The notes under the pieces: model-generated
Databases searched by the model: none
Seen by the model: only the letters and a program-made list of their open reading frames with translations
Told to the model about the DNA's origin: nothing
IMG/VR virus record: IMGVR_UViG_3300011217_000001
Location: 32,001 to 96,000 of that record
Source: a virus
Taxonomy: Duplodnaviria > Caudoviricetes
Direction: 5' to 3' (one strand)
Length of the DNA stretch: 64,000 nucleotides
In this document: piece by piece, positions 40,047-64,000 of the stretch
Layout: every line of letters starts with the position of its first letter
Position numbering within the stretch: the stretch's first letter is position 1
Position numbers and translations under genes: made by a program

Positions 40047-40063
40047 TCCAAGGGGATACGACA

Positions 40064-40789
40064 ATGAGTAGAGAACAGGACTTGCAAGACCTGCAGGAAG
40101 CCATTGATCGTATCCCCGCGGCTATCAATGAGTTGGCGGCGGCCAAGAGGGCCGCCGCCTATGCCTCGGACAATGCGGACAGGTTGGAGAACACAACCGC
40201 TGCTGCGCTTACCACGGAAGCGGAAGCGACGCAGGCGGCTCACATCAACAGTCGGAGCAATCCGCATGTTGACACGGCTGCCAACATTGGCTGCTACTCC
40301 ATCCCTGAGATTGACACGATGCTGGCGGGATTGATTCCGTCGGGTATTCTTCCGATCTCGGCAACGGGGTTGGGGATGACCAATACGTTGTTGATCTGGC
40401 CGTACTCAGGTGACCAGTTCACCGTCCGGGCGCAGTCAGTACTGATGCTGGGTCGCTTCTTCACCATCGGGGCGACAACCATGCGACTGAGTCAGATCTT
40501 CGGATCTCTGGCTGAGTACGCGAACAAGGATATCCATGTCTACGTCGCCATGAGCGAAGGATCTCCTGTTTACGTGGTCAGTGTCGAAAGGCTCAGTGAA
40601 TCACTCAATCGCATGTACATGGCTACGGTGCGCACGAATGCGGCAGGCGCAATCACGGCATCTTTCGGGGTGTCGAGGCAGCGCCTGGATACATTCACCG
40701 TGACCAACATCCCGTCGGGAAGCGCCATCCCCCGTACGGACGACATGCCAATGAACCCGACTGCACTCAATGCCACGTGGATACGCTGA
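40064..40789 (+). CDS. Short tail-fibre/baseplate family protein (gp131-135-like termini only)
   Basis: One NPH motif, GILPIS, and a C-terminal block homologous to the two following genes. Confidence 0.72.
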   Translation: MSREQDLQDLQEAIDRIPAAINELAAAKRAAAYASDNADRLENTTAAALTTEAEATQAAHINSRSNPHVDTAANIGCYSIPEIDTMLAGLIPSGILPISATGLGMTNTLLIWPYSGDQFTVRAQSVLMLGRFFTIGATTMRLSQIFGSLAEYANKDIHVYVAMSEGSPVYVVSVERLSESLNRMYMATVRTNAAGAITASFGVSRQRLDTFTVTNIPSGSAIPRTDDMPMNPTALNATWIR

Positions 40790-40868
40790 TAAGGTCTACT
40801 CTCTGCCTGATGCTATGCATCGGGCAGGGAGCCCTTATTTCCTTTTATTTCAGCAACAAGGTAGACAC

Positions 40869-43805: not shown

Positions 43806-43817
43806 CAGAAAGGGTGA

Positions 43818-46736
43818 ATGATGAGTATCAAGGGACTGGCGGCGATGAAGGCAAAGCTGGATGCCTTCCTCGCAAAGGCCATCGCAAAGTCGAAGGAAAA
43901 GCCCGTTGCGGCTACTACTTCCGACAACACGACCAATCTGGGTGGCAAGTCTTACTCGGATTGGTTTTGGGAGATCATCAATCGCATCCAAGCGCACGCT
44001 GCGCGCCGTGACAATCCCCACGGCGTCACTGCGGCGCAGGTGAACGTTTACGATCGGCCGACGACCCTGTCGGCTCTGGAGACGACGCTCCCCGCAGATG
44101 CTTGTCCGGTGATCTCCTATGGTCGACAGAACGAATACCCGATTGACATGTCGGGGGCGTTCGAGGCTGCCTTCCGCTATCAGGAGATGCGTTGGTCGGT
44201 TCTGAACGTGGAGCCGGATGGTTCGGTGGCTCTGATCCGCAATGGTACGGATGGTGGCAACACCGGCGCCTTCCTCTGCTACTCTGAGGACGCATCCACG
44301 GCATCCAAGCCGACGATGATCTACACCAACAACCGCTACAAGGCACCGTACTTCCCCGCTGGCAAAACCAGCGCATACGTGTTCCAGGGTGGCGCGGGTG
44401 TGATCGCTGGTAAGGTGCAGAACCTGACCACCGGCGAGTTCGGCGAGTGTTTCATCTCGCTGATGGATGGTTCGATCTTCGGAGCCAACCATCGCGGTAT
44501 CCTGATCGACCCGACCTGGTTTGCGGACTACCTGCATCGCGGCGAGTGCATCCTGACTCCAGACGGCGTCTACGTCGTCACTCAGTCGGACATTCGCGAC
44601 ACGGCTACGCAGAAGTTTGATCTGGCAGTGCACTTCTTCCCGATCAGTGCTTTCTCCGCAGCCAACCAAGCGCTGGTGGAGCCGATCCGCATCACCAACT
44701 GCGCCACCAAGGATCTGTACGGCGAAAAACCGCGTGCAGGCACTCCGGCCAACATCCATCGTTTGTCCGAGTGCGTGGTGTCGCGCCTGATGACTGACAA
44801 GCCGTTCATCCACGCACCGGGTTCTCGCGATACCCAGCGTCCGCTGGTCTCGGTCAATCATCGTCCGGGCATGTTCTCCATCTATGATCCGGCATCGGGT
44901 AGGGTGAAGGGTAGCTTCCGCGGCGTGCGTCGTACCAGCATCAGTGGTTACTCCGGCTACCTGACCCATCGCTTCAACTTCGAATACGAGATGGTGCTCA
45001 CTCCGACCACCTCCTACTTCGAAGTAACCACAGGCAAGGGTTCGCTGCCGGACAATCCGCCTGTTCGCCTGATCGTCAGTGACACCGCCGATACCGCAAC
45101 GGTAAGCGGCCCGTCCTACACGATCCCGGGTGGTGAGTATTACGGCTTCGGCGAGAGTGATCAGCAGGTATCATTGACCACGGCCGAAGACGGCACGGTG
45201 TACGTCTTCTCTGATGGCTACTACCAGTTCAGCCCGGGTCGCTTCAATCGTGGCAAGGCTGCCGCTGGCCCGAACAGTCCGAAGGTCAATGGTTATCTTC
45301 CGATGACCTGCGCGCGTAACCCGTGGGCTACCAACGACAACTCGTTCCCGCCTGCACCTTCGGCACTGGGTCAGTTCAACAGCTCACCTGTCCCGATCCC
45401 CTCGGGCTGGTTGGTCCACAGCTTCGGTCGTCGTGCGGATGGCCAGAGCACAGCAGCTCACGCCATCTTCTCCATCGGCACGCCCGGCTTCACCTACAAG
45501 TCACTGTACAACGGCAGCTATCAGGGCTGGGCTCCGAGCACACGCCGCCAGTTCGTTTCCGACACCCCGGGACATTATCAGGACACCACCTATCCTGCTT
45601 CCGTAGTGGCCACTGACGGCACGGTGACCACGAGCCTGGGCGTACTAGGGGACAACATCCGGATGAGCGGCATGATGCGTCTGGCGGCCAATGGAACGGC
45701 CTCCGTACCCATCAGCATCACCACCGCTGCACTGGAGAACCTGAGAGCGGCTGTGGTGGCTGCAATGGCACCCAATGTCGTGCGTTCGATGGCGTTGGAG
45801 ATCATCACCACCGAGATGGCGGATCTCCCCCCGATCCTCAATGTACCGGTCGTCTTCGAAGACGGCTCGACGCAGACGTGGGCGTGGACGTTGAACTCTG
45901 GACGTTCGGGTGCAATCACTCCGACGCTGAAGGATGCCATCGGTAGCGTACGCATGTCCGGCGGACCCAGTACGTACACCATCGGCGTACAGTCCATCGC
46001 CCAACGCTCGGCATACTTCCAGGCCTACCAGACTGCTGATGCGTACCTGATCGGTCTGCGCATGTGCAACAGTCACAACAACTCCGGCGCTGCAGCCATG
46101 TTCGACTCTCGCTTTGCGATCAGTCGTTCCACTGGCAAGGTAGTGGATGGAACCTACACGGTCATCCGTCGTTCCAACTCGGCACCCAACCTGCGTGGCG
46201 TGGTGGCTGTGGCTGGCATGGGTTTGTGTGAGATGATCGACACCAACACCGATGCCGACTTCGTGACCAAGGCTCTGATCGCTCCTGCGGCGACCACGGC
46301 TGAACACATGAAGAACTGGACCATCGACAACAACCGCGAGAACTGGCGTGTGTTGGCGAGCGCTCAGATGGCGTCGGCTTGGACGGTCTCGCTCAATCAG
46401 GTGGAGCCGTTGGTGCTCGGCGGACGTTATTATGAACTCCAGCCTGCAACGATCAACCTGGCCGACATCAAAGCCAACCCGGCCAACACGACGTTCTACG
46501 TCTACGCAGTAACCGTGCCCAGTCCCAGCTACCAGATCACCGAGACCAAGTATCCCGACAACATGCAGCGCATGTTCCTGGGTACGATCACCACCAATGC
46601 ATCCGCCGTTGAGCGCATGCAGGTGGGGAAGGTCGTCGGGTACGGTGCGGGACGTCTGTCCACGGTTCCGGCTGGCCAGTCCATCCCTGTCAGCGGCGGT
46701 CTGCCAAGCAGGCCCGGCTCTCTCATCTGGAAATAA
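43818..46736 (+). CDS. Tail fibre/baseplate protein, paralogue of the previous gene
   Basis: NPH, PVISYG, GAFEAA, EPDGSVALIRNGTDG; C-terminal PANTTFYVY...GQSIPV. Confidence 0.75.
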   Translation: MMSIKGLAAMKAKLDAFLAKAIAKSKEKPVAATTSDNTTNLGGKSYSDWFWEIINRIQAHAARRDNPHGVTAAQVNVYDRPTTLSALETTLPADACPVISYGRQNEYPIDMSGAFEAAFRYQEMRWSVLNVEPDGSVALIRNGTDGGNTGAFLCYSEDASTASKPTMIYTNNRYKAPYFPAGKTSAYVFQGGAGVIAGKVQNLTTGEFGECFISLMDGSIFGANHRGILIDPTWFADYLHRGECILTPDGVYVVTQSDIRDTATQKFDLAVHFFPISAFSAANQALVEPIRITNCATKDLYGEKPRAGTPANIHRLSECVVSRLMTDKPFIHAPGSRDTQRPLVSVNHRPGMFSIYDPASGRVKGSFRGVRRTSISGYSGYLTHRFNFEYEMVLTPTTSYFEVTTGKGSLPDNPPVRLIVSDTADTATVSGPSYTIPGGEYYGFGESDQQVSLTTAEDGTVYVFSDGYYQFSPGRFNRGKAAAGPNSPKVNGYLPMTCARNPWATNDNSFPPAPSALGQFNSSPVPIPSGWLVHSFGRRADGQSTAAHAIFSIGTPGFTYKSLYNGSYQGWAPSTRRQFVSDTPGHYQDTTYPASVVATDGTVTTSLGVLGDNIRMSGMMRLAANGTASVPISITTAALENLRAAVVAAMAPNVVRSMALEIITTEMADLPPILNVPVVFEDGSTQTWAWTLNSGRSGAITPTLKDAIGSVRMSGGPSTYTIGVQSIAQRSAYFQAYQTADAYLIGLRMCNSHNNSGAAAMFDSRFAISRSTGKVVDGTYTVIRRSNSAPNLRGVVAVAGMGLCEMIDTNTDADFVTKALIAPAATTAEHMKNWTIDNNRENWRVLASAQMASAWTVSLNQVEPLVLGGRYYELQPATINLADIKANPANTTFYVYAVTVPSPSYQITETKYPDNMQRMFLGTITTNASAVERMQVGKVVGYGAGRLSTVPAGQSIPVSGGLPSRPGSLIWK

Positions 46737-49688: not shown

Positions 49689-50549
49689 TCAGTTACCGGT
49701 GGTAACGGCCGACGGCTTGAACATCGGCTCGGTCGCGCCCAGGTTCACCTTCAGGTTGAAGCCCATATTGGTGAAGCCCACCGGGTAGTGACCGGTCATG
49801 TGGGCAGCGATCTGTGCAGCCACTGCTTCTTCGTACTGGATCGTGGTGTTGCCCGGGCCCGGACCGGTGACGATCTTGGTCGCAGCAGTCACCATGCCGA
49901 TCTCGGAGATCACCGCGTAGCGCTCGTCCTTGAACAGGATGCGCATGGCATTGACGAACTCGGCCACGTCGTTGGCGGTGAAGTCCAGCGGCAGGATCGC
50001 CGACACGGACAGGTAATCGCCGGAGGTGGTGACGGTGCCGGTGCTCGGGTATTCCGGAGCGGTCGGATTGAGGTTGCTGTTGTCCGGACGGAACGGCGTG
50101 GTGGTGACCTGGCCGTCCACTACCTTGTTGTAGTAGATGTCCGGCGACACCGAATCCATCGGGATCTTCTTCAGGTAGTAGGCCACATAGTTGCGGCCAT
50201 CCACCTGGATGATCTTGCGCATGCCATAGCGAGCGCGTGCAGCAGCGTCCAGGTCGTTGGTCAGCTCGCGCATGACGAACGGCAGGGGGCGGAACAGGCC
50301 AGCGTCGGTGGGACGATGGTCGATCGGACTGGTCAGCGGGAAGCCGTCAGCGCCGGTTTCGTTGCGGTGACCACCTTGACCGATGGTGTAGTAGCCCATG
50401 TACGGGATCTTGCCAGCTTCGGGCAGGACGTTGGCCTGGACTTCGTACTTCTCGTTGAGCGTGCTGTTGGGCAGCGCCTTGTAGGGCTTGCCGATCAGCA
50501 GCTCGGTCTGACGCAGGCAGCCGTAGCCAGTACGGGTAATGATTTTCAC
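49689..50549 (-). CDS. Virion structural protein (phiKZ-like conserved)
   Basis: NSTLNEK, YYTIGQGGH, H-x-PTDAGLF-x-PLPFVMR and YVAYYLK; GTG start. Confidence 0.68.
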   Translation of the reverse strand: MKIITRTGYGCLRQTELLIGKPYKALPNSTLNEKYEVQANVLPEAGKIPYMGYYTIGQGGHRNETGADGFPLTSPIDHRPTDAGLFRPLPFVMRELTNDLDAAARARYGMRKIIQVDGRNYVAYYLKKIPMDSVSPDIYYNKVVDGQVTTTPFRPDNSNLNPTAPEYPSTGTVTTSGDYLSVSAILPLDFTANDVAEFVNAMRILFKDERYAVISEIGMVTAATKIVTGPGPGNTTIQYEEAVAAQIAAHMTGHYPVGFTNMGFNLKVNLGATEPMFKPSAVTTGN

Positions 50550-50624: not shown

Positions 50625-51707
50625 TCAGTAAGGCTGTTCGCGACGCACGTCGTAGGGGATGACCAGCTTGCCGCGCAGGTTCTTGCACAGCGGGCCCAGC
50701 TCGATCACCAGCACATGACTGTAGTCATTGCAACCGCAGTGGAACGGACCTTCGTTGCGGCCGTTGTAGACGATGCGCGCGCCGGAGACATTGAACTCTA
50801 CTTCCTGCGGGGAGGAGATCCAGAAGTCACCGGTCAGTCGCGTGCCATCGCGCCACTTGCCGTCATGGGTACGTACCGGTTCACCGACACGATACTTCAA
50901 CAGGTTCTGGTAGAGGATGGTGCCTTCCAGATCCTGGTAGTACGACTCGGCCAGCTGCTTGCGACCCTGACCACCGAGGTGATCGGGATAGATGAAACCT
51001 GACAGGTCCGTCACGCAGATCATCGCGCTGAGGCGATTGTCCGGGATCAGGATGACTTCCATCGCGCCGATCCAGACCAGGCAGTTCGGACGGAAGCGAA
51101 GGCGAGCCAGGAAATGACCACGCTGCAGCCAGCTCGGCGGGCAGTTGGAGAAGTCGACGTCGAAGTCTTCCATGTCCAACCAGATGCGGTAGCGATCACG
51201 CATTGCCTGCGCTACGCTCTCCTTGGTCATCCGGGCGTCCACGTGCAAGTGGATGTGCGTCTTGCCCAGATACGCTTCCATCAACATGCGATGGTAAGTG
51301 AACGTCTCGCTGCTGCACCAGCCGGTCTTGCGAGTCGGTGTGATGTGCACCTGCGTCAGCGTGTTGCCCAGTGCGGCTGGAGCGCTGAGCTCCAACTGGT
51401 CGGGTGCGAAGTCCGTCTCGTTGGCACGGTTGATCAGATCGACCAGTACGTGCTTACCCGGCTTGTTGTACGGGTAGATCGGTTCGGCACACTGCCAGGC
51501 TTCAGGCTGACGATGCTGATGCGGGAAGTGCTCGTAGTGTCGGGGATCAGGGCGCGGATGGGAGTGCCCGTGATCGTGGTGATCGTGCGGACCCTGTGCA
51601 GACGGCCGACGTCCTTGAATCGGCGGGGCCGAGCTCCAACTATCTTGATCCGAGAAGTTCCCGGGGGACGAGTGTCCACCTCGCGGGAAGGGAGGCTGGC
51701 TGTGCAT
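50625..51707 (-). CDS. Member of the modular paralogue family with a His/Pro-rich leader
   Basis: GGAG SD; YNKPGKHVLVDLINRANE... module and LSAMICVTDLSGFIYP motif shared with the 51862-59781 array. Confidence 0.75.
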   Translation of the reverse strand: MHSQPPFPRGGHSSPGNFSDQDSWSSAPPIQGRRPSAQGPHDHHDHGHSHPRPDPRHYEHFPHQHRQPEAWQCAEPIYPYNKPGKHVLVDLINRANETDFAPDQLELSAPAALGNTLTQVHITPTRKTGWCSSETFTYHRMLMEAYLGKTHIHLHVDARMTKESVAQAMRDRYRIWLDMEDFDVDFSNCPPSWLQRGHFLARLRFRPNCLVWIGAMEVILIPDNRLSAMICVTDLSGFIYPDHLGGQGRKQLAESYYQDLEGTILYQNLLKYRVGEPVRTHDGKWRDGTRLTGDFWISSPQEVEFNVSGARIVYNGRNEGPFHCGCNDYSHVLVIELGPLCKNLRGKLVIPYDVRREQPY

Positions 51708-51861: not shown

Positions 51862-53061
51862 ATGAGCGAAATTGACCAGAGTCAGACCAGCGACAAGTTG
51901 TTGCTGAACCTGATCAACGTCGAGAACGAGAGCACCATCGAGCGCGAGCAGATCGACTTCGGTCTGCCCAACACGCTGGCCGAGCCGATCGAAGGCAGCG
52001 ATGCCAACACCCGTACCGAGGTGATCGCGGTTCCGGATGCCCCTTGGAACAAGAGCGTCAAGGTGGAATACCACCGCCGCGAGCTGCCGCGCTACTTCGG
52101 CGATGAGATCGAGGTGTCCGTCCCCAAGGGCGCTTCCAAGGAAGACATCGTCTCGCGCATCAACGCCGAGTACGGCACGAAGCTGGCCCACCTGGAGATG
52201 GAGATCTCCCCGGCGCCGTCGGCAGACAACATCCCGGGCGAGTTCGTCCTGAAGGCAGTACCGAATTCGCTGGGCTACATCGGTCAGGTGCCCCTGATTC
52301 TGGATCTGGTCCGTTCGCCGTTGAGCGATCGTCTGACCAAGTCGGATCTGGATGGCTTCATCTATCCGAACGCCAACACGCCCTCGCTGAACAACATCAT
52401 CCTCGAACGCAATGTCCTGGGTCCGACTGGCGTCCCGGCCATTGTTTCGAGCGGGATCACTGACAACCGCAAGGGCTTCAACTTCGCCAAGAATGGCGAG
52501 GTAGTGGCGTTCGTGCGTGCCTTCAATACCACGGGTGGTTGGGATACCACCGGCGGCGTGGGCGTTGACCCGAATGCGGAGGGCATCTACCCGATCCGTA
52601 CCGCCACCGGCTCGCACAGCAACTTCGGCTATGCTCGAAGCTGGCAGGTTGCATTCGGTTTCCAGCTGACTGCCGAACAGACCAAGTTCCAGGACATCCT
52701 GGAAGGTTACGACGTCGAGGTGGAAATCAAGACCTCCTTCCCCAATGGCACGGGCGAGAAGACGGTCACCTGCCGCGCCGAGTACTTGCCTACCGACGCC
52801 ACGCGTCTGCGGCTGGTCAACAAGGAAACGGGTGCTGTCGTTGGTAACATGTCCAATACCGGCTCGGGCAAGACCACCTACAAGTCCCTCCTCAGTACCA
52901 GCAGTCAGGCACTGTTCCCGGGCATGCAGGTCACTGAAACTTCGGTCAACGGTACGCGCATGTCGATCTATCGCGGTCGGATCAAGACCAAGCTGACCCT
53001 GACCCGCAAGACCGGTCGTGCCAAGGTGGTCGAGATCATCACCGAAGCCATCGCATCGTAA
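51862..53061 (+). CDS. Modular paralogue 1 (conserved N-module + variable domain)
   Basis: LLLNLINVENE...PW...INAEYG...LSDRLTKSDLDGFIYP...NGEV...RKTGRAK. Confidence 0.8.
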   Translation: MSEIDQSQTSDKLLLNLINVENESTIEREQIDFGLPNTLAEPIEGSDANTRTEVIAVPDAPWNKSVKVEYHRRELPRYFGDEIEVSVPKGASKEDIVSRINAEYGTKLAHLEMEISPAPSADNIPGEFVLKAVPNSLGYIGQVPLILDLVRSPLSDRLTKSDLDGFIYPNANTPSLNNIILERNVLGPTGVPAIVSSGITDNRKGFNFAKNGEVVAFVRAFNTTGGWDTTGGVGVDPNAEGIYPIRTATGSHSNFGYARSWQVAFGFQLTAEQTKFQDILEGYDVEVEIKTSFPNGTGEKTVTCRAEYLPTDATRLRLVNKETGAVVGNMSNTGSGKTTYKSLLSTSSQALFPGMQVTETSVNGTRMSIYRGRIKTKLTLTRKTGRAKVVEIITEAIAS

Positions 53062-53071
53062 GGAGTAGTCC

Positions 53072-55000
53072 ATGGACGTTTGCCCATTGGCAAAGCCCAG
53101 CAAGCTGCTTGTCCTCGACCTGGTCAACCAGGAGAACGACAGCAGCATCACCGAGGAGCAGTTGATCTTCGGTGAAGTGGAATCGAACGAGGAGGGCGGT
53201 AACACCGCCCTCCGTCTCACGGCTGCACCTGATGCGCCGTGGAACAGCTTCGTTGACACCACCTTCGATCGTCTCGATCTGGCGGTGCTGTTCAACAACG
53301 AGCGCGCGGAAGTCTCCCTGCCCAAGGGCGCAACTGCCGCTGACCTGATCTGTCATTTGAACTTCACCTACGACCTGAAGTTTGACGTCAATGAATTCGA
53401 CGTCGTTCCGCAGGAAGATGGTGAACTGCCGGAACTGTACAAGGTCACGGCGAAAGCTGGCAACATGGCCTACGTGGGCTCGGTCGATGTATTTGCCGAT
53501 CTCGATCGCATGCCCTTGTCGGCCCGACTGCTCACCACGGACCTGAACGGCTTCAAGTACCCGTACCGGGGACCGTCGCTGGACCACGTGGTGTACGATC
53601 AGGATACCGACTACAGCGCCTTCGGTAACTTCGGTTACTATGGTCGTCCCAACGACCCGTCACTGATCCCGGAATATCGACGTGGTGCACTCTCTGGTGA
53701 CAACGGAGAAGTGAAAGCGTACATGATGTACGAAGTTCCCACCTACGATCCGACCCTGGCTGCCAATCAGTCTGGAGTTGGTCGTTTCTATGGTCCTCGT
53801 GATGCTGTCGACGGCGTGGTGATTATCCCGCAGCCGAAGGTAGCCTTGCGTCAGGGCAATGCGGAGCCCGTACTTCTCGTCGGCATTCAGTCCTCTGATG
53901 GGACGACCGTCCTTACCACCAAGGGCATCACTGATACATACGACGCAACCTTGCGTCTTGTCTCTGGTAACGGCGGCAGTCAGCGTAGCGTGCGCACCTA
54001 TACGCTCATCGATGCTCCTGAGCGTATCGATGCTATCTATTGGAAGGCCGATCCGGATTCTGCCAAGGCAGGTTCTATCGACGTCATGGGCGTGCTGTCC
54101 GGCGGCGGGACGATGATTCGTACGTACGACTACCCCGGTACATTCAACCGCTCCATGCCTGGCGTGACTGCTTGGTCTGGTTCCGTCGATGGGCGAACCA
54201 TCCGTCGAGTATTCGGTGAGGTTGAAGCCACGTTGACGTTGCAGCGTAAGGTCGGTCCTGCCGAACCGATCGTCCTGCATCTGAAGATGCGGACTGATCC
54301 GATTGAAGGGGCGGTCGGTACGCTGGACAAACCGGCTTACTTCGCCTCGCAGCCCGTGGGCCTGCCCAACGGTCTCGGCGTGACCAATATCCCCGGCGAT
54401 ACCGGTGGGCTTGTTGATTACGCCGAGAACGGTGAAGTTATCGTCTACAACCGTGCGGTGCAGGCAACAGCTGTCAGTGGTGAGGTGCGGGCAACACCCA
54501 CGCGCACCCCGAAGACGTCTATCATCAACACCAGGATGGAGCCTTGGCGCGTTTCCCTAGGCCTGAGCCGTGACATCGATGCGCTCGGCGATGATCGTGT
54601 CATGAAGGAATATGACATTCAGCTGGTTTCGCGTAGCAGGCCGGCGAGCAATGCTTCTTGGGTCACCGAAATCCGTGACATGGTCAGTCGAGTCGACGCC
54701 AATGGGAAGCTTCAGTACGACCTGAAGTTGCAGGGTGGTACGAACGCCTACAACGCCGGTAGCAGGAAGATCGGCGAGAAGAACTTCTGGATTGCATCCA
54801 TCCAGCCCAATGGTAACCAGAGCACTGCTGCTATCGCCCTCGCAGATGTCCCACCGTTCCACAAGGGTCTGAATGTAACTCAACTGGGCACAGGTCGGTA
54901 CGCATACATCGGCCAGACCGAACATCGCTGGAAACTCAAGCGCAAAGACGGCAAGGGCGCTGCGATCGAGCTGGTTACCCTCTACGACTTCAAGGCATAA
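53072..55000 (+). CDS. Modular paralogue 2 (N-module + two variable domains)
   Basis: MDVCPLAK start; DLDRMPLSARLLTTDLNGFKYP; two NGEV...RKxG units. Confidence 0.8.
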   Translation: MDVCPLAKPSKLLVLDLVNQENDSSITEEQLIFGEVESNEEGGNTALRLTAAPDAPWNSFVDTTFDRLDLAVLFNNERAEVSLPKGATAADLICHLNFTYDLKFDVNEFDVVPQEDGELPELYKVTAKAGNMAYVGSVDVFADLDRMPLSARLLTTDLNGFKYPYRGPSLDHVVYDQDTDYSAFGNFGYYGRPNDPSLIPEYRRGALSGDNGEVKAYMMYEVPTYDPTLAANQSGVGRFYGPRDAVDGVVIIPQPKVALRQGNAEPVLLVGIQSSDGTTVLTTKGITDTYDATLRLVSGNGGSQRSVRTYTLIDAPERIDAIYWKADPDSAKAGSIDVMGVLSGGGTMIRTYDYPGTFNRSMPGVTAWSGSVDGRTIRRVFGEVEATLTLQRKVGPAEPIVLHLKMRTDPIEGAVGTLDKPAYFASQPVGLPNGLGVTNIPGDTGGLVDYAENGEVIVYNRAVQATAVSGEVRATPTRTPKTSIINTRMEPWRVSLGLSRDIDALGDDRVMKEYDIQLVSRSRPASNASWVTEIRDMVSRVDANGKLQYDLKLQGGTNAYNAGSRKIGEKNFWIASIQPNGNQSTAAIALADVPPFHKGLNVTQLGTGRYAYIGQTEHRWKLKRKDGKGAAIELVTLYDFKA

Positions 55001-55012
55001 CAGGAGTAAACA

Positions 55013-56224
55013 ATGGACATCTGTCCGCTGGCAAAATCGGGTGAGGAGCTCATCCTCAACCTGATCAACTCCGAGAACAACACGGAGATCACGGCCGAGC
55101 AGCTGGTGCTCGGTACGCCTGCGGCCAACAGCGAGGGCGGCAACACCGCCCTCAACGTTGCAGCCGCCGAAGACGCACCCTGGAACAAGTTCGTCGACGT
55201 TTCCTACGATCGACTGGACGTGGCCACCGTCTTCCACAATGAACGGGCGGAGATTTCACTGCCCAAGGGCGCCACCACGTCTGATCTGGTCTGTCACCTC
55301 AACTACACCTACGGCACTGCCTTCAAGGTGGATGAGTTCGACATCAAGCCGATCGAGGACGGTGAGCTGCCCGAACTGTACGAGATGACCGCCAAGGCGG
55401 ACAACCTCGCCTACACCGGTACGCTGCAGGTCTTCGCGGACCTCGACCGGATGCCGCTGTCGGCTCGCCTGACGGTGACCGATCTGAATGGCTTCGGCTA
55501 TTACAGCGAAAGCATCCCTTCGCTCAACAACATCATCGTTGAGAACAACGTAACGATGCCGGCCAGTTACCCGGTGGCGATCGGTCGTGGCGTGGACAAT
55601 CGGGTCGGCTATAACTTCGCCAAGAATGGTGAAGTAGTGGTCGGTTGGCGGGGTATTCGCCATACCAACTTCGCCACTGAATCATCCAGCGGGGCATCTC
55701 GTCGGGGCGATGGCAGCATCATCCTCAATACCGAAACTCCGACCGGCTCTCCCCCGGGCGGCGGCAACACGTGGCGTGGACGTCCGTGGCGCTTCTGCAT
55801 GTACCTCGGACTCGATCCTGCGCAGAACACGTTTGCGCATATCGCCGACGGCTACGACATGTCCATTGAGCTGACCACCAAGAGCGACGGTGCTCCGTTC
55901 ATCGTGACGGGTGCCTTGGTGCGCTCTGGCAATGACCTGGTGTGGCAGAGCAGCATCGGACTGAACATCCCGCTGACCTACAACAGCAACCAGAAGATGT
56001 ACGTCTTCCAGTTGGATGACCTCATCGACAACTCCACCACCATCACGATTCGCCGCCTGCTCAACGGTCTGCGTATGACCGAACGCAAGGTAGCGGGCCC
56101 GGGTATCATCTACAACGGTATCTGGATCCGCAACGGTGACTTCACCGCGACGCTGAAACTCGTCCGCAAGACCGGTCGCGCTAAGCCTGTCGAGATGACG
56201 ATGGTCAGCACTGTTTCCGCGTAA
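55013..56224 (+). CDS. Modular paralogue 3
   Basis: MDICPLAK...DLDRMPLSARLTVTDLNGFGYY...NGEV...RKTGRAKP. Confidence 0.8.
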   Translation: MDICPLAKSGEELILNLINSENNTEITAEQLVLGTPAANSEGGNTALNVAAAEDAPWNKFVDVSYDRLDVATVFHNERAEISLPKGATTSDLVCHLNYTYGTAFKVDEFDIKPIEDGELPELYEMTAKADNLAYTGTLQVFADLDRMPLSARLTVTDLNGFGYYSESIPSLNNIIVENNVTMPASYPVAIGRGVDNRVGYNFAKNGEVVVGWRGIRHTNFATESSSGASRRGDGSIILNTETPTGSPPGGGNTWRGRPWRFCMYLGLDPAQNTFAHIADGYDMSIELTTKSDGAPFIVTGALVRSGNDLVWQSSIGLNIPLTYNSNQKMYVFQLDDLIDNSTTITIRRLLNGLRMTERKVAGPGIIYNGIWIRNGDFTATLKLVRKTGRAKPVEMTMVSTVSA

Positions 56225-56239
56225 CACGAGGAACCTTAG

Positions 56240-57457
56240 ATGGACGTCTGTCCCCTTGCAAAGACCGGTCAGGAGCTGGTCCTCGAATTGGTGAACGCCG
56301 AGAACTCCTCGGCGATCACTGAGGAGCAGCTTGTCTTCGGCTTGCCCGAAGGCACTGATGCTGAACAGAACACCAAGCTGAACCTGACGGCGGCTGTCGA
56401 CTCGCCCTGGAACAGCTTCGTGGACGTGGAGTACGATCGCCTTGACCTGAACACCTTGTTCCACGGTCAGCGCGCTGAAGTCTCCGTCCCGAAGGCTGCA
56501 ACACCTGCCGACATCATCTGTCATCTGAACTTCACCTACGGGACCAAGTTCGATGTCAATGAGTTCAAGGTGACGCCGGTTGAAGACGGTGAGCTGCCTG
56601 AGCTCTACAAGGTCGAAGCGCTCGACAACAACCTGGCCTACACCGGCACGTTCGACGTGTTCGTTGATCTGGAGCGGATGCCTCTGAGCGCACGCCTCCT
56701 GAAGACGGACCTGGAAGGTTTCACCTATCCGAACGCAGGCGAGCCCAGTTTCAACAACGTGATCTACAACGCCAACGAAACCGGCCTCATCGGCATCACT
56801 CAGCTCGGCGCCTACTCTGAAGCCCCAGCAAGTGATCGTGACCAGTGGCGTACTGGCATGCGTTCGGCCAACAACGGTGAACTGCTCATCTACGTCGGTG
56901 GCGATGTGTCCACCAGTCATCGCAACGTCAGTAGTCGGGCCAACATCAGTAAGTTCAATTGGCCTTACGAAGACGGCGTGATGATCCTGCCGCAGATGAA
57001 AATTGGCGGTGACGTTACGCAGTCTGCTTTCTTCATCTCCTGCGGTTTCCGACGCGTCAACGCGATGGACTGGACTGCGGCTGAGTTGCTCGAATTGTAC
57101 GACATCAGCGTGGAGGCCTTCAGTCGTAATCGCCAGACGAACGACAACATGGCCATTGGTTTCACACGCCGAGCGATCGCGCGAGTGCATCCCTCCAACC
57201 CGCAGACCATCCAGTGGCTGCTGGAAGACAATAGTACGCGCAACTGGTCTCTTGTGAACAACGCAGCCACCGGCAACTGGTTCCGTTCGTCCATCCAGCC
57301 GGGCGTCGGCATACTCCCGGGCTTCCGTGGCTGGTCTGGCTCCGGCGCCAGCCGTGCTCATGGTGAAGGTCATCTCACCATCACCGCCAAACGCAAGGAT
57401 GGCAAGGGCAAGCCGCTGGTCGTACGTCTGGACTTCCGCACGGATCCGGCTTTCTAA
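56240..57457 (+). CDS. Modular paralogue 4
   Basis: MDVCPLAK...DLERMPLSARLLKTDLEGFTYP...NGEL...RKDGKGKP. Confidence 0.8.
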   Translation: MDVCPLAKTGQELVLELVNAENSSAITEEQLVFGLPEGTDAEQNTKLNLTAAVDSPWNSFVDVEYDRLDLNTLFHGQRAEVSVPKAATPADIICHLNFTYGTKFDVNEFKVTPVEDGELPELYKVEALDNNLAYTGTFDVFVDLERMPLSARLLKTDLEGFTYPNAGEPSFNNVIYNANETGLIGITQLGAYSEAPASDRDQWRTGMRSANNGELLIYVGGDVSTSHRNVSSRANISKFNWPYEDGVMILPQMKIGGDVTQSAFFISCGFRRVNAMDWTAAELLELYDISVEAFSRNRQTNDNMAIGFTRRAIARVHPSNPQTIQWLLEDNSTRNWSLVNNAATGNWFRSSIQPGVGILPGFRGWSGSGASRAHGEGHLTITAKRKDGKGKPLVVRLDFRTDPAF

Positions 57458-57491
57458 TCCCACCGCTTCACCCACCACAGCAGGTACTTAG

Positions 57492-58655
57492 ATGGACGTC
57501 TGTCCTCTCGCAAAGTCCGGCTCCGAGTTGATCCTGGATCTGATCAACGCCGAGAACGGTTCCACCATCACCGAAGATCAGATTGTCTTCGGTGAGCCCA
57601 CTGCCTCCACGGAAGATGGCAACACGGGCCTGAACGTCGCTGCTGCGGAAGACTCTCCGTGGAACAGCTTCGTCGATGTCAAGTACGATCGTCTGGATCT
57701 GGCAACGCTGTTCGGCGATCAGGACGTTTCGGTGTCCGTGCCGAAGGAAGCCACGGCGGCCGATATCATCTGCCACCTCAACTTCACCTACGACCTGAAC
57801 TTCAAGGTCGACGAGTTCGATCTGCTGCCGCAGGAAGACGGCGCAATCCCCGAGCCGTACAAGCTGCGCGCGAAGGCGAACAATCTCGCCTACACCGGCG
57901 AGTTCCCGCTCTTCGTTGATCTGGAGCGCATGCCCTTGTCGGCACGTATCCTCGTCACCGATCTGGACGGCTTCGGTTATCCCAACAGCGATATCCCGTC
58001 GCCGAACAACCCGATCCAAGTCCAGGTGCCGACTCGCTCATCGGGTAGCTCGTACTACGCAGCCTTCACCAAGGACTACGGTGATCTGCAGTTGAAGATC
58101 GAACTGGGGATGGGCGGTAATACCCCGCCGGCTATCCCGGTGCGGGTGCTCGACCGTACCGACGGCGTGCGCCAGATGGCATGGCGTTACAGCAACCAGG
58201 GCTCCTCCACGGCCTCGATCGAGGTCACTGCCTCGAAGGGCGGCGTGGCTTTGAAGACCGCCGCTATCCTGGACGACTACGATATCAGCGTCATCGAAAT
58301 CGGCACCCTGGGTGAAGGTCCGGAGATGAAGGTGATCTTGGCCGAGGCCAATGGCACTGGCGCCCCGCTCAGGAGCGATGACGGGCTGACCTACCCGATT
58401 CGCTTCAACGCCGCTCCTACCAACAACTTCGCCATGAGGATGCTGGTCGATGTTGGCAGCAGCCAGCCGGCAGTCGGAACCTACGCTCGCATCCTGCGTG
58501 ATACGTACGGTGTCGGCTACGGCTCGGCCACCGGTGGCGGTTCGACCTGGTACTACCGCCGTGGGCAGATGATCTATCGCCTGAAGCTGAAGCATCGTCG
58601 CAACCCGAACAAGCCCGACTTCTTCATCGATTTCCCGGTCGAGTTCACCCTGTAA
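57492..58655 (+). CDS. Modular paralogue 5
   Basis: MDVCPLAK...DLERMPLSARILVTDLDGFGYP. Confidence 0.8.
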   Translation: MDVCPLAKSGSELILDLINAENGSTITEDQIVFGEPTASTEDGNTGLNVAAAEDSPWNSFVDVKYDRLDLATLFGDQDVSVSVPKEATAADIICHLNFTYDLNFKVDEFDLLPQEDGAIPEPYKLRAKANNLAYTGEFPLFVDLERMPLSARILVTDLDGFGYPNSDIPSPNNPIQVQVPTRSSGSSYYAAFTKDYGDLQLKIELGMGGNTPPAIPVRVLDRTDGVRQMAWRYSNQGSSTASIEVTASKGGVALKTAAILDDYDISVIEIGTLGEGPEMKVILAEANGTGAPLRSDDGLTYPIRFNAAPTNNFAMRMLVDVGSSQPAVGTYARILRDTYGVGYGSATGGGSTWYYRRGQMIYRLKLKHRRNPNKPDFFIDFPVEFTL

Positions 58656-58731
58656 TAGCCGAAAGCGACCGACTCTCGCGAATCATGTGAGCGTCTCCTC
58701 ATCCCCGCTCCACCCAAAAGGTACTTAGAAA

Positions 58732-59781
58732 ATGATCGACTACTTGAACAAGCCGGGTAAGGAACTCCTCCTGGACCTGATCAACGATGACAACGATGCC
58801 ACCTTCACCTTCGAAGAGCTGATCTTCGGGCCGCCGGTGGAACTGAGCAAGAACCAGGACGAGCGCAACACCGCCTGTACGGTCACCGCTTCGCCGACCA
58901 GCTACTGGTACGGTCCGGTCACCACGCGCTTCGAGCGCCTGTTCCTGGATCGCATGTTCATCGACCAGGAAGTCGAGTTCTCCGCCAAGGACGTCGTGTC
59001 CGACGCAACCCTGCTCGACGCGCTGAACGCCGAATACGGCCTGAAGCTGGAACCGACTGACGTCGAAGTCATCGGCGCCTACCCGGGCGAGTTCGGTACT
59101 GCCGAACTGACCGTCAAGGCCAAGCCGGGTTCGTACGTGTACCTCGGCGAGATGGTCGTCCAGCTGATCGCTGAAAAGATCATGCTGCCGAACTACATCA
59201 CCCACACCACGCTGAAGGGCTTCCAGTACCCCGAAGCAGTGCCGGCTCACGTGGGCAAGGTGGTCAACGCCTACACCGAAGCGCTGACCAACCCGGGCAT
59301 GGATCCGTCGATCGTGGACCACGTGTTCTACGAAGTGGGCACCAACCAGGAAGCCATCGTCGGCGTCGGCGCCAACATGAACGGCAAGGTGGCCTGGTCC
59401 AACGGTGGTCACGACGTCACCGGCGGTGCCAAGTTCATGGTGCTGTTCGAACTGGCCAACCCGGCCTCGCTGGCTGAAGGCGCCAAGATCGAAAGTCTGT
59501 ACGACTTCCGTCTGCGCGTGGAAGGCAACCGCGAGGTGTCCTACAAGTTCATGGCTGAAGACGGCAACTACTTCCTGCGTCAGGAAGTGACCGGCGACGC
59601 CGTGGTGGACCTGGACGACATCCCGCTGGTGGCCTCTGCCTCGGGCCTGAAGTTCCAGGCGCTGGTTGACCTGGAAGCCATCATCGGTGGCGTGCAGTCG
59701 GCAACCGCCGTGGCCATCCGCAAGGCCGGCTTCGGTCCGCGCGTGCTGGGTCACTTCACCCTGTCCAAGCCGCAGACCTAA
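58732..59781 (+). CDS. Modular paralogue 6 (divergent, strongly codon-biased)
   Basis: LNKPGKELLLDLINDDND...LNAEYG...LPNYITHTTLKGFQYP...RKAG. Confidence 0.78.
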   Translation: MIDYLNKPGKELLLDLINDDNDATFTFEELIFGPPVELSKNQDERNTACTVTASPTSYWYGPVTTRFERLFLDRMFIDQEVEFSAKDVVSDATLLDALNAEYGLKLEPTDVEVIGAYPGEFGTAELTVKAKPGSYVYLGEMVVQLIAEKIMLPNYITHTTLKGFQYPEAVPAHVGKVVNAYTEALTNPGMDPSIVDHVFYEVGTNQEAIVGVGANMNGKVAWSNGGHDVTGGAKFMVLFELANPASLAEGAKIESLYDFRLRVEGNREVSYKFMAEDGNYFLRQEVTGDAVVDLDDIPLVASASGLKFQALVDLEAIIGGVQSATAVAIRKAGFGPRVLGHFTLSKPQT

Positions 59782-59801: not shown

Positions 59802-59840
59802 GACATAGAGGGAGGGGCGAAAGCCCCTCCCCTTATGCCG
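59802..59840. terminator. Bidirectional hairpin of the CATA...TATGCCG family
   Basis: GACATAGA-GGGAGGGGC-GAAA-GCCCCTCCC-CTTATGCCG. Confidence 0.82.
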
Positions 59841-62540
59841 TTAGCCGAACATCTCAGCCAGCTTAGCAACGAAGCCGCTAGCCGGAATCTGGACAGTGAA
59901 GCTGCCCGTCAGTCGCATGCTCTTGGCCGAAGCCGTCATCGTCACCGTGGTTGCATTGGAGGCAATGGCGGAATAGACGAACTCATCGCGCGACAGCTCC
60001 ATGCCGTACTTGCGATTGAGCCAGTCCACAACTTCGTAGACGTCCATCGGGCGCACGTCCCCGTCCCAGCGCAGATTCGCGCCAGTGAAGTACGTGGCCA
60101 GATTCAACAGCGGTGCCTGCAGCTCGATGACGCCAGTGTAACGCTCCACCTCTGCCGTATTGCGCGGAGGGATAGCGGTGACCAGCACCTTGGCATTTGC
60201 ACCCACAGCGCCGGTACGAGCGATCGTAGCGTTGTGAGGATACACTGCGGCAGTGTTGTCATCGTTCATGCGACGAATCACCGACCAGCCATTGGGCATT
60301 GCCAGCAGCGGATTGGTGTCTGCTGCCAGATACTTACCGGCCGTGAAACGAGCGGTGGCATCAAAAGCAGACAACGTGGTCTTGGTGATCTGACTGGCCA
60401 ACGTCTTGGAAGGCTCCTGGACGAGGGAGAAGCGGACATTGAGCATGTCCACGTTCTCAGTCACTTCACGCTTCACGCCACCTTCGAACCCAACGGACAT
60501 GTCCGTGGAGAGCTCGTGGAACTTGGTGGAAGACACATCGAACTCCACCATGTCGCCGATCATGTCGTAATCGACTTCATGGCGAGCCAGCGTATCTGCA
60601 CTGAGCACCCGCACTGCCAGCTTGGACAGGTCCGTGACATCGCCAGCCGTGGTGTAGTCATCACCCAGGCGGATGACCGCAAAGTCAGCCATCTTCAACG
60701 CATCGGAGTTGATGGAGGAGATGAACTGGATGGCGTAGCTGGACAGCTGCTCCATCAGCGAGATCATCGCCTGCTGGAGCTCCTTGGCCGACTTGGTGTT
60801 GGTGCTGTCCATGCCAGTTGCCGCGCGCAGGATGCCGGTAGCCAACAGATCCAGTTCCAAGACGCTGTAGTCGTGGATCAGGTAGTTGTTATCGGTCAGC
60901 CAATCCTCGTAGAAGCGTGTGCTGCCAAAGTCCACCGGCACATTGTAGAAGAACCGGTGCGCAAGCGCCTCGGTCATGCCACGGGTCATCTCGTGTTCCT
61001 GCGTCGCGTAAACGTCACGCTGATGCATGGTGTAGTTGTAGATGTCCTGGCAGGCTTCGTAGAAGGTCACGGTGGAGATGATCTTGGATGGGATCATGTC
61101 CGGGTGACCCTCGTAGAGGGCCTCTATGATGTTGTCCTTGATGTACTTGCGATCGACGATGGTCCACAGCTCCGAGGGACGCGGGGCAGGGTCACGCAGG
61201 ATGTGGCGCGCCTCCAGCTTGGGCAGACGAACCAGATCAACACCACGGGCCTTGTTGTAAGCCCACAGGTAAACGATGAACGCATTACGCACCGTCATGC
61301 GTACACCTTCACCCGAGCGCGGATCGGGTACGGTGATTACCGGTGTGAAGCGATCGTTATTGCTCCAGAAGATCCAGTGGTTGAGCAGCGTGTCCGACAT
61401 CGTGAACGGCATGGAATCGGTCAGGTCCAGCATTGCCGATTCCAGCACCTTCGTCGGGAACTTGTCCATCGCAGCAGTCTGGATGGCTTCCTCAATCAAG
61501 GGCTCTTCGTAGCCCTGCACTGCGGCGTTATCCTTTGCCGCAGGCTGCTCTGCATCGAGCATCCGTGCCACGGTACGTACGTCGTCACCGGTCTGGTTGA
61601 AGCCGAAGTTCAACGCAGTGCGGAACAGACGTGCCGCCGGTTCGATGTTCTCAGGCTGGTCTTCCAGATCATGGCGAATGTCCCACTTGGCCAGTGGGAT
61701 ACCACGTTCGGTCAGCAGGTTCTGCAGCAGGTCATCGAAGGTTTCCTGCTTACCCGGATTGCGCTCGATGTAGCGGATGTTACGATACAGCCACAGCATC
61801 TGCTTCTTGGTCAGCGTGTCGATGAACGTGTCCAGCTTACCGTGGCTGGCCAGGAACTCGCGGATGTGGAAGCTGTGGGCATATCGAGTGTGGGCATTGC
61901 CATCGCGGATTGCCATCAGCTTGCCGGGGATGTTCGCACCGATGGCAGCAAACATCGCACCGATGTACATGTCGTCGGTCAGCTGGAAAGCCGGAACCAG
62001 CCAGCGCACGATCACACGGCGCAGCCATGCTTCAAGTTCCGGGATCAGGTTGCGCTCGTTGCTCTCCACCAGCGTCTGGTCGTAGTACAAGATCGTACCG
62101 TCAGCGCAGTTGTAGATGGTGGAGAAGTCCTCGGCGTCGGAGTCGTTGGGCGTGAACCCAGCGGTGAGATCGATCGGATTGAGGATGCCGTTGATCAAGC
62201 TGACCTGCCGGGGATACTTGGCGCGCAGCTCCTTGTAGTAGTCCCCATGGGTGGAGTATTCGCGCTTGGTGACGCGATGCTCGGCCAAACTTTCCTTGGT
62301 GAACTCTATTCTTTGAAGCGTGTCCAGCGAGGTGACATACATCAGTTTGTCCGCTGGATGATATTCGCCGGCCATGTTCTTGTAGTAGCGCCAGCTACTG
62401 GGATCTTCGTCCCGTACTTCGTAACCCAGTTCACGAAGGTACTGATTGATCGCCTCAGCGGCGTCAGCGGACTTGATGACCAGCGAGCGCGCCAGAGCGA
62501 GCACATCGTCGACGTAAAGTTTGTAATACGCAGTGGACAC
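59841..62540 (-). CDS. Virion structural protein (phiKZ gp128-like) with a C-terminal extension
   Basis: GTG start at 62540 with GGGAGG SD; LARSLVIK, WRYYKNMAGEYH, VTSLDT, AHSFHIREFLASH, LYRNIRYI and TKVLES; divergent from the portal gene. Confidence 0.75.
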   Translation of the reverse strand: MSTAYYKLYVDDVLALARSLVIKSADAAEAINQYLRELGYEVRDEDPSSWRYYKNMAGEYHPADKLMYVTSLDTLQRIEFTKESLAEHRVTKREYSTHGDYYKELRAKYPRQVSLINGILNPIDLTAGFTPNDSDAEDFSTIYNCADGTILYYDQTLVESNERNLIPELEAWLRRVIVRWLVPAFQLTDDMYIGAMFAAIGANIPGKLMAIRDGNAHTRYAHSFHIREFLASHGKLDTFIDTLTKKQMLWLYRNIRYIERNPGKQETFDDLLQNLLTERGIPLAKWDIRHDLEDQPENIEPAARLFRTALNFGFNQTGDDVRTVARMLDAEQPAAKDNAAVQGYEEPLIEEAIQTAAMDKFPTKVLESAMLDLTDSMPFTMSDTLLNHWIFWSNNDRFTPVITVPDPRSGEGVRMTVRNAFIVYLWAYNKARGVDLVRLPKLEARHILRDPAPRPSELWTIVDRKYIKDNIIEALYEGHPDMIPSKIISTVTFYEACQDIYNYTMHQRDVYATQEHEMTRGMTEALAHRFFYNVPVDFGSTRFYEDWLTDNNYLIHDYSVLELDLLATGILRAATGMDSTNTKSAKELQQAMISLMEQLSSYAIQFISSINSDALKMADFAVIRLGDDYTTAGDVTDLSKLAVRVLSADTLARHEVDYDMIGDMVEFDVSSTKFHELSTDMSVGFEGGVKREVTENVDMLNVRFSLVQEPSKTLASQITKTTLSAFDATARFTAGKYLAADTNPLLAMPNGWSVIRRMNDDNTAAVYPHNATIARTGAVGANAKVLVTAIPPRNTAEVERYTGVIELQAPLLNLATYFTGANLRWDGDVRPMDVYEVVDWLNRKYGMELSRDEFVYSAIASNATTVTMTASAKSMRLTGSFTVQIPASGFVAKLAEMFG

Positions 62541-62584
62541 CGCTGCGTCCTCCCTTCTTAAATGTTTGTGTACTGGAGTGGATA

Positions 62585-64000
62585 ATGAGCAACCTGCCGC
62601 CCGTCTTTTCGAAGGACAGCGATCGCCGTAAGGCAATGCCGAAGATCGGGTCTTTGAAAAACAGCCCGCAGCTCGGTTCGTTGGTCTCCAAGCTGGTGTA
62701 CGCCAACAGGGAAGTTCAGAACGGCAGCCTGCACCGCCGTCGTGAAGTGAACCTGCCTGGCGATCAGTTCTTCACCAAGCTCAGCGACAACACCGCAACC
62801 AATGTCACCGATTCGGCCAACCTGATGCAGCTGCTGCCGGATCTGCGTTTGAACATGCAGATCATGGTCAGCTCGATCCTGTCCCCGAAGGACATGGTCA
62901 ACGCGAAGTTGAACTATCGCGTCCAGGATGGCATCTTCGACAGCGAGCTTTCCGGCCTGTTGCTGGACGTGGTTTCTACCCACTTCTCGCAAGTCTATAA
63001 GATGGACAGCCGTCTTCCGACATTGTTGGAGGACATCCTGTATCACCGTGGTTCGCGCCCGATGATCATCCTGTCCGAGTCGACGATCGACGACGTCATC
63101 AACAACCCGACCCGCGCTTCCATGGAGTCCGTCAAGATCGCCGTGGAAGGCGCTGACAGCCAGTGTCTGGGTTGGCTGGGCCAACCTCCGGAGAAGTCCT
63201 CAGAGGCCGCCAAGGGCAGCGCTACGGCCGCTGGCGTGGGCTTTGCCATGGAGTCGTTCGGATCGGCCGCTGGTACGGCGCAGGTGCGCTACAACCCGAC
63301 CTTCCAACCCTTCAAGTCGACGGCTGAAAAGCCTACCGGCAAGCTGTTCATCAGTGACAATCCGGAGATGCTGAAGATGCCCGCGCTTGCGCAGGCAGCG
63401 ATCCATCACCGCAGCGATGCTATCCTCAAGCGTCGCAACAATCGCAAGGGTCTGCTGAACCTGCCCAAGGTCACCGTTGCTACCGAGTCTATCGGTGAGG
63501 ACGGCAAGCCCACGTTGCAGGAAGTCCAGTCGGCTCTGTACAGTCAGCGTCGTTACGCCGCGATGCCGGTGCAGACGCTGTACACCCGTGACCAACTGAA
63601 GACCAAGACCAAGGGTCATCCGCTGGTCATCGAAGCGCCGTCGGAAGCTGTGATCCCAGTGTTCGTGCCGTCTGATCCGTCCGATCACATCGGCTACTTC
63701 CTGGTCTGTGACGAACGTGGTCACCTGGTCAACAAGGCCACGCAGGACGACTACTACAACCAGCTCAACCAGAACGTCAACGCGAACAACGACATGATCA
63801 GTCAGCTGATCCAGTCGACGCATCGTGGCACGTTCGGAATGAAGGGCAACAACGAGATCGACGGCGAGTCGCTCCAGCGTGCCTACTCGGATATGGTTGA
63901 GCAGAACATGCTTGCCCGTCTGCGTGCTGGCGCATGCGGTGACAACGTGACCATCGCTCGTCCGGAGGAAGTCTTCCGGATCATGCTTGCTCGTACGCTG
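62585..64000 (+). CDS. Portal protein (phiKZ gp129-like), runs off the window
   Basis: Read by hand: MSNLPPVFSK...LLPDL...IMVSSILSPKDM...GHPLV...PSEAVIPVFVP...HIGYFL; contains SME/AME/ATE protease-type sites. Confidence 0.8.
   Translation, partial: MSNLPPVFSKDSDRRKAMPKIGSLKNSPQLGSLVSKLVYANREVQNGSLHRRREVNLPGDQFFTKLSDNTATNVTDSANLMQLLPDLRLNMQIMVSSILSPKDMVNAKLNYRVQDGIFDSELSGLLLDVVSTHFSQVYKMDSRLPTLLEDILYHRGSRPMIILSESTIDDVINNPTRASMESVKIAVEGADSQCLGWLGQPPEKSSEAAKGSATAAGVGFAMESFGSAAGTAQVRYNPTFQPFKSTAEKPTGKLFISDNPEMLKMPALAQAAIHHRSDAILKRRNNRKGLLNLPKVTVATESIGEDGKPTLQEVQSALYSQRRYAAMPVQTLYTRDQLKTKTKGHPLVIEAPSEAVIPVFVPSDPSDHIGYFLVCDERGHLVNKATQDDYYNQLNQNVNANNDMISQLIQSTHRGTFGMKGNNEIDGESLQRAYSDMVEQNMLARLRAGACGDNVTIARPEEVFRIMLARTL

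Follow-up and report, generated by a model that had tools for sequence, protein, structure and literature searches.

Why should a core gp128-like structural protein of a phage end in a module of the type encoded by the gene array beside it, and why should a short linker-like motif stand ahead of the domain there? These questions are raised by one gene of the window analysed here, by which we mean the whole 64,000-nucleotide stretch of viral DNA.

A wedge gene beside a DUF7941 array

The gene lies on the - strand at 59841..62540, with a GTG start at 62540 and a stop at 59841-59843, and encodes a protein of 899 aa. It is contained in a longer - strand ORF (59841..62636), the C-terminal sequence of which is as the first-pass annotation quoted it. 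The GTG at 62540 is the true start, with a ribosome-binding site, AAGGGAGG, at 62549-62556, seven bases upstream, and the closest database homologue (P0003) is likewise 899 aa long. Residue numbers given here follow the ORF, and protein numbering is the ORF number minus 32. An overlapping + strand ORF (59835..62561) is read as an antisense shadow frame in this genome of 58% G+C, because the - strand product matches phrog_3222 over residues 35-725 with an E-value of 1.4e-208 in a profile search. Between the wedge gene and the genes converging on it, a G+C-rich hairpin read from the sequence (59810..59832) is likely to be a bidirectional terminator.

The wedge core (60567..62534, - strand, residues 35-690) lies within the phrog_3222 match and also matches solved chains, namely 9xqs_C (PHIKZ128; E 6.8e-130), 11lx_Bh (E 2.1e-123; an 803-aa chain, the same length as Goslar gp35), and 36za_sR. 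The protein is 91% identical to the wedge of Xanthomonas phage Xoo-sp14, and its source is a jumbo phage. By homology, the product is a baseplate wedge protein of the phiKZ gp128 / Goslar gp35 family, from an Xoo-sp14-like chimallivirus; the earlier label of a core gp128-like structural protein is narrowed to baseplate wedge since the core is homologous to these two proteins. In phiKZ, gp128 is the inner-baseplate wedge protein, with a single copy and two gp87 chains in each wedge, and it touches the first of the five gp139 dimers making up each spoke; the heterotrimer with two gp87-like chains is known from phiKZ alone (PMC13250141). The role of Goslar gp35 as a wedge protein matches that of phiKZ gp128.

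The wedge gene is placed in a baseplate module beside DUF7941 and spoke genes, a layout that is the same in Xoo-sp14, phiKZ, PhiPA3, and Goslar. The spoke protein (49689..50549, - strand; phrog_3315) is a homologue of Goslar gp32 (38% identity, E 4e-63), which has been equated with phiKZ gp139 (preprint 10.64898/2026.04.21.720040). The gene at 50625..51707 (- strand) encodes a full-length, gp127/gp22-like DUF7941 protein with a His/Pro-rich N-extension followed by N-domain, linker, and C-domain (PF25613 E 4.9e-52, positions 3-275 of 276). Convergent on the wedge gene is an array of six DUF7941 genes (51862..59781, + strand; PF25613 E 1e-23 to 7.5e-34), the products of which consist of N-domain, linker, and variable C-part and carry one linker motif each, scoring 21-31 bits. 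DUF7941 is found only in chimalliviruses and has been proposed to be universal among them (10.64898/2026.04.21.720040). In the same preprint the linker is described as disordered and predicted to dock on the N-domain of the next protomer, giving head-to-tail filaments, and purified Goslar gp22 forms filaments seen by EM (10.64898/2026.04.21.720040). The DUF7941 proteins of Goslar were proposed to be long flexible filaments for host recognition; their attachment point was not seen, and the peripheral baseplate was suggested (10.64898/2026.04.21.720040).

The fused domain and its split counterparts

The wedge protein ends in a DUF7941 N-domain (59886..60323, - strand, residues 772-917), as the first-pass annotation had recognised when it described the end of the protein as an array-type module. 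Pfam DUF7941 (PF25613) matched residues 797-917 at profile positions 25-151 (E 4.5e-9), and the score of 36.6 bits is above the gathering score of 27 bits for that family; phrog_1037 matched the domain with an E-value of 1.1e-11. An HMM built from the seven N-modules alone, the search that the annotation had proposed, found the domain in the wedge protein at E 2e-4, and a broader N-domain HMM did so at E 4.8e-13. The AlphaFold2 model of residues 735-931 (mean pLDDT 90, pTM 0.83) has an alpha/beta fold for the domain, with pLDDT above 90. Foldseek returned for this model a sole significant match among solved structures, 9xqd_0 (E 9.1e-8, TM 0.74), a 150-residue chain of the phiKZ outer baseplate which, by length and entry, is the phiKZ gp127 N-domain described in the preprint. 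When the tail and one paralogue were each searched as single sequences against solved structures, nothing relevant was returned, and gp127 was found by the fold search only.

The fused domain is about 20% identical to the array modules and, as far as sequence can tell, is a real but distant DUF7941 family member, and no recent copy of an array module. The C-terminal globular domain (DUF7941 profile positions ~180-276) is absent, and the protein stops 14 aa past the N-domain. These last 14 aa (59844..59885, - strand, residues 918-931; predicted helix 921-930, pLDDT 88) are a truncated linker remnant, which is conserved in P0003 and in a further homologue, P0004, and aligns under the array linker; no PSSM match to the linker was found within it. 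The DUF7941 proteins of phiKZ (gp127/gp126) and Goslar (gp22, gp23, gp31, gp33, gp34) have the same N-domain by profile and fold, a linker motif adjoins the N-domain in them as in the wedge of the window, and the proposed docking of linker on N-domain is common to both. The wedge differs from them in that its domain is C-terminal, lacks the C-domain, and keeps only the 14-aa remnant of the linker, whereas the docking motif comes from the wedge tail upstream. With respect to where the domain came from, similarity was tried as a guide and given up, as the domain is equally distant from gp127 (10.6 bits) and from the array modules (8.7 bits); gene order alone favours gp127.

That gene order is itself informative. 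A DUF7941 gene directly follows the wedge gene in phiKZ (gp127), PhiPA3 (gp146), and Goslar (gp34), and in PhiPA3 gp147 and gp146 are in the same reading frame, separated by a stop and one codon if the evident gp146 start is used. When the PhiPA3 gp147-gp146 read-through, with X placed at the stop, was used as the query, the protein of the window (P0001) and the homologues P0004, P0113, and P0121 were collinear with gp147-stop-gp146 over ~870-890 residues (E 1e-123 to 1e-142), and so the protein is read as a fusion of a wedge and a gp127-like protein. The homologous core, the baseplate module, and the nearness to DUF7941 and spoke genes are common to this wedge and to phiKZ gp128 (724 aa) and Goslar gp35 (803 aa); the latter two, however, have motif-bearing tails without a domain, and the wedge of the window adds the DUF7941 N-domain. 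The arrangement would then be one in which an N-domain is fused to the wedge C-terminus, the same domain being encoded immediately downstream in unfused relatives.

Only 5 of 121 wedge homologues carry the fusion, and they fall into two separate clades within a 42-member clade; since these are well separated, fusion or fission has occurred at least twice. The second fused lineage (L007) has the spoke gene immediately downstream of the fused wedge gene, with no separate DUF7941 gene in direct succession. At every locus examined, the wedge gene either adjoins DUF7941 genes or carries the fusion; because of this, and because DUF7941 has been proposed to be universal in chimalliviruses, the co-occurrence of extension and array, which the annotation had put forward as a check, is uninformative.

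The motif ahead of the domain

Beyond the core, a tail segment (60402..60566, - strand, residues 691-745) that is alignable to nearer homologues ends in the strand RFSLVQEP, and is followed by the linker-like motif LASQITKTTLSAF (60363..60401, - strand, residues 746-758) and a flexible spacer (60324..60362, - strand, residues 759-771), where pLDDT drops to 56-74. Residues ~679-745 were also considered as a decayed DUF7941 N-domain, a candidate that would have turned the tail into a tandem module and that was rejected with an HMM hint of E 1.9 against an hhalign probability of 0.2% (family tail versus N-domain alignment).

The motif shares 7 of 13 residues with the linker of the neighbouring paralogue, the pattern IT.TTL..F being common to both, and in the alignment it occupies the position of the first tail motif in wedge homologues. 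It is degenerate, without the G and YP, and scores below 8 bits on an iterated PSSM and 3.5 bits against an HMM of the seven linkers, a score reached in 3 of 1000 tail shuffles. The resemblance could be due to chance, in which case residues 746-758 would be a mere connector before the fused domain, and the low bit score, the missing G and YP, and the barely recognisable equivalent segment in the second fused clade all point that way. Yet so few shuffles attain this score, the segment corresponds in aligned position to true linkers and, in homologues, to the first tail motif, P0004 keeps L.G[YF] there, and the motif is modelled with a pLDDT of 97; we thus regard a chance resemblance as improbable.

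The motif-before-domain order had been described as reversed with reference to the seven paralogues, in which the motif segment comes after the N-domain. A profile search of 1.84 billion proteins returned 2619 DUF7941 family members, and tandem N-domains (two to four) are present in 45 of the best 150 of these. When the wedge tail is compared with the tandem junctions, strand, motif, spacer, and first domain helix all line up, and therefore a motif followed by a domain is the normal junction between a linker and the next domain. In metagenomic tandem-module proteins (e.g., P0134, P0138, and P0143) this junction is the same column for column; there an N-domain precedes the linker, whereas in the protein of the window the wedge core precedes the motif. 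Judged by this alignment, the order is not reversed and the wedge core stands in place of the preceding module. What had looked like a reversal is the ordinary junction of tandem DUF7941 proteins.

In the AlphaFold2 model, pLDDT is 97 over residues 745-754, declines to 74 and then to 56 across the following twenty residues, and climbs above 90 again in the domain; the construct 735-931 has no other folded part besides the fused domain. Read from these confidence values, the motif would pack on its own domain in cis, which is the intramolecular folding that the first-pass annotation had named beforehand as counting against its docking proposal. The alignment fed to AlphaFold2 included tandem-junction rows, which may have driven the placement in cis, and an array paralogue N-module folded alone gave its own linker a pLDDT of 78-87, so that high confidence does not separate cis from trans. 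In view of both points, we treat cis docking as a prediction. The paralogue fold had been tried as a disordered-linker contrast and was set aside because, at these values, it does not discriminate. Predicted as a complex, P0001:735-931 and the adjacent paralogue's N-module scored 0.02 against a mark of 0.32, which speaks neither for nor against binding.

The reading that we find rather probable is that the protein is a wedge and DUF7941 N-domain fusion in which the tail motif would bind its own fused domain in cis, just as the linker of a DUF7941 protein is proposed to dock on the N-domain of the next protomer. The motif before the domain would belong to the wedge tail and resemble the DUF7941 linker. 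It is rather unlikely, in our estimate, that the docking is in trans, with the wedge motif on an array N-domain and/or an array linker on the fused domain, such that the wedge starts a head-to-tail chain. The published head-to-tail model and the gp22 filaments seen by EM (10.64898/2026.04.21.720040), the likeness of the wedge motif to the linker of the adjacent paralogue (IT.TTL..F), and the presence of an N-domain and a strong linker motif in every array protein would suit such nucleation, but AlphaFold2 fills the site of the fused domain with its own upstream motif at a pLDDT of 97, the 13-aa spacer favours intramolecular contact, and the array linkers are stronger motifs than that of the wedge. 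Of the earlier proposal of a donor motif and an acceptor domain, the donor-acceptor idea is reasonable, as the motif is the family linker, for which docking has been proposed in the preprint; as regards the partner, AlphaFold2 places the motif on its own domain.

That proposal had been likened to strand complementation in pili. The logic is similar in chaperone-usher pili, where a short segment occupies a site on the next unit and fusion gives a self-complemented form. Chaperone-usher pilins, however, have an incomplete Ig fold, whereas the fused domain has a mixed alpha/beta fold like phiKZ gp127, and the best pilin match to the model in Foldseek (7ba2_A, E 0.53) was not significant; the analogy is a loose one, of logic only.

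Some observations run against docking in cis on a fused domain as the best explanation. The window's own motif is degenerate, and the fused domain keeps only the 14-aa linker remnant for continuation of a chain. Further, in phiKZ, gp127 has been modelled at the far end of the five-dimer gp139 band and gp128 at the near end (PMC13250141), and with the two at opposite ends a direct contact between the gp128 tail and gp127 is not evident; for such a contact the gp128 tail, which is unmodelled, would have to extend as far as gp127, or else the architecture differs between phages.

Wedge tails across the family and a proposed mounting of DUF7941 proteins

Linker motifs are enriched in wedge tails well beyond the fused proteins. 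The DUF7941 linker motif occurs in about 40% of 120 wedge-homologue C-terminal tails, with 1-9 copies per tail at a spacing of mostly 14 residues and with the consensus T-(D/E)-L-x-G-(L/F)-x-Y-P, and these copies are often terminal with no domain attached. A PSSM built only from the seven linkers of the window gave 25 matches in 17 of 120 tails, versus 0 in the wedge cores, which hold four times more residues than the tails, and 0.1 in shuffled tails; after two iterations there were 114 matches in 49 of 120 tails versus 0.6 in shuffles. A simple regex gave 176 matches versus 9.7, with up to nine per tail and a 14-residue period. Six-frame translation of the window showed the motif in the seven DUF7941 proteins only, plus one weak match. 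Goslar gp35 has about four copies in its tail, and a single weak copy is present in each of the phiKZ and PhiPA3 wedges. Downstream of one wedge with four clean motifs lies a gene for a 155-aa protein that is an N-domain only, with no linker; the gene after that combines an N-domain with an Ig-like part. The tail of another wedge homologue (P0021) weakly matches the linker positions of the Pfam DUF7941 profile, and a Pfam search of the repeat-rich tails found no known repeat family. On these statistics, the wedge-tail repeats are the DUF7941 linker motif.

Could the fused domain serve as an adaptor only? It would then play the role of the phiKZ gp127 N-domain contacting the gp139/gp32 spoke, the tail motifs would bind the spoke or other baseplate proteins, and DUF7941 chaining would have no part. 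In phiKZ the gp139 band extends between gp128 and gp127, and each star lobe has one gp127 (PMC13250141), so that six lobes and six wedges imply a gp127:gp128 ratio of 1:1; the spoke gene belongs to this module in the window and comes immediately after the fused wedge gene in L007, and tail repeats spaced 14 residues apart leave little room for each motif to bind a 150-aa domain of its own. Against this, the tail motifs are statistically the DUF7941 linker, with the weak P0021 match falling on linker positions, and phiKZ gp128 has one weak motif yet is associated with five gp139 dimers. We consider an adaptor without chaining unlikely.

With the fusion and docking in cis as the preferred reading, the wedge tail would present linker-like motifs that capture DUF7941 N-domains, and in the window the first captured domain would have become fused to the wedge. 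Since the domain is part of the wedge protein, each of the six wedges would carry one DUF7941 unit covalently. In most other chimalliviruses, the wedge tail would offer 1-9 such motifs to separate DUF7941 proteins, which in these unfused phages would be docked in trans; in the window, the six array proteins, the full-length DUF7941 protein at 50625-51707 or other paralogues may attach further. The earlier idea of the wedge as an attachment point for the array is a reasonable one, and is strengthened by the linker motifs that many wedge homologues carry in their tails; together with the fusion, these suggest that the wedge is the anchor of DUF7941 fibres.

A wider form of this idea, which we put forward tentatively as a serious possibility, is that the tail of gp128-family wedges is a general socket strip for the DUF7941 'fibre cloud' of chimalliviruses, the 1-9 linker mimics each capturing the N-domain of a fibre or receptor-binding protein, with the Xoo-sp14-type and P0113/P0121-type fusions as its Rosetta-stone forms. 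In the literature, we found no paper on the wedge-DUF7941 fusion, on its collinearity with split genes, or on the statistical identity of the wedge-tail repeats with the DUF7941 linker. The DUF7941 family and a model of head-to-tail chaining through the linker are already published (10.64898/2026.04.21.720040); what is new is that the wedge looks like the anchor. Together, the fusion and the wedge-tail linker motifs point to one particular, testable site of anchoring, namely the unresolved C-terminal tail of the wedge. If true, this would account for the way in which a conserved baseplate carries receptor-binding proteins that vary as a set, and would help to engineer and predict the host range of jumbo phages, among them Xanthomonas biocontrol phages.

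Gene starts and the N-terminal extension

The GenBank annotation of the wedge gene in Xanthomonas phage Xoo-sp14 (14349-16796 of its locus, L002; 815 aa) is suggested to be about 84 aa short on the N-terminal side, because the GTG start in the window is preceded by a ribosome-binding site and the homologue cluster is of 899-aa proteins. In PhiPA3, the annotated start of the DUF7941 gene gp146 (start region at 12196-12260 of the PhiPA3 locus, L003) looks to have been placed too far downstream; an in-frame ATG one codon past the stop of the wedge gene gp147 yields an N-terminus like that of phiKZ gp127. The domain of the full-length DUF7941 protein in the window is preceded by a low-complexity, His/Pro/Gln-rich N-extension of 78 aa (51474-51707, minus strand).

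Wedge-tail repeats, a motif match and fibre-like genes

The tail repeats of the wedge homologues P0005-P0122 have a main period of 14 residues, with multiples of 28, 42 and 56. Instead of acting as independent docking sites, they could fold together into a regular structure. Outside the DUF7941 genes of the window, we found only one motif-like match, a weak one (8.2 bits) at about 40304, in a 241-aa protein (40064-40789, plus strand) flanked by fibre-like genes. Three large plus-strand genes at 36840-46736, with matches to the tail-fibre PHROGs phrog_2163, 3573 and 13857, are apparently a fibre set of the phiKZ gp131-135 type, the first of which carries numerous internal repeats (seven matched stretches).

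The convergent array

The last array gene and the wedge gene converge, and their stops are separated by a G+C-rich hairpin (59810-59832) with a perfect 9-bp stem and a 5-base loop of the GAAAG type, which is likely a bidirectional terminator. The convergent DUF7941 array comprises seven genes in Xoo-sp14 (L002 16855-25896) compared to six in the window (51862-59781). Array size thus differs between two phages with wedge proteins that are 91% identical.
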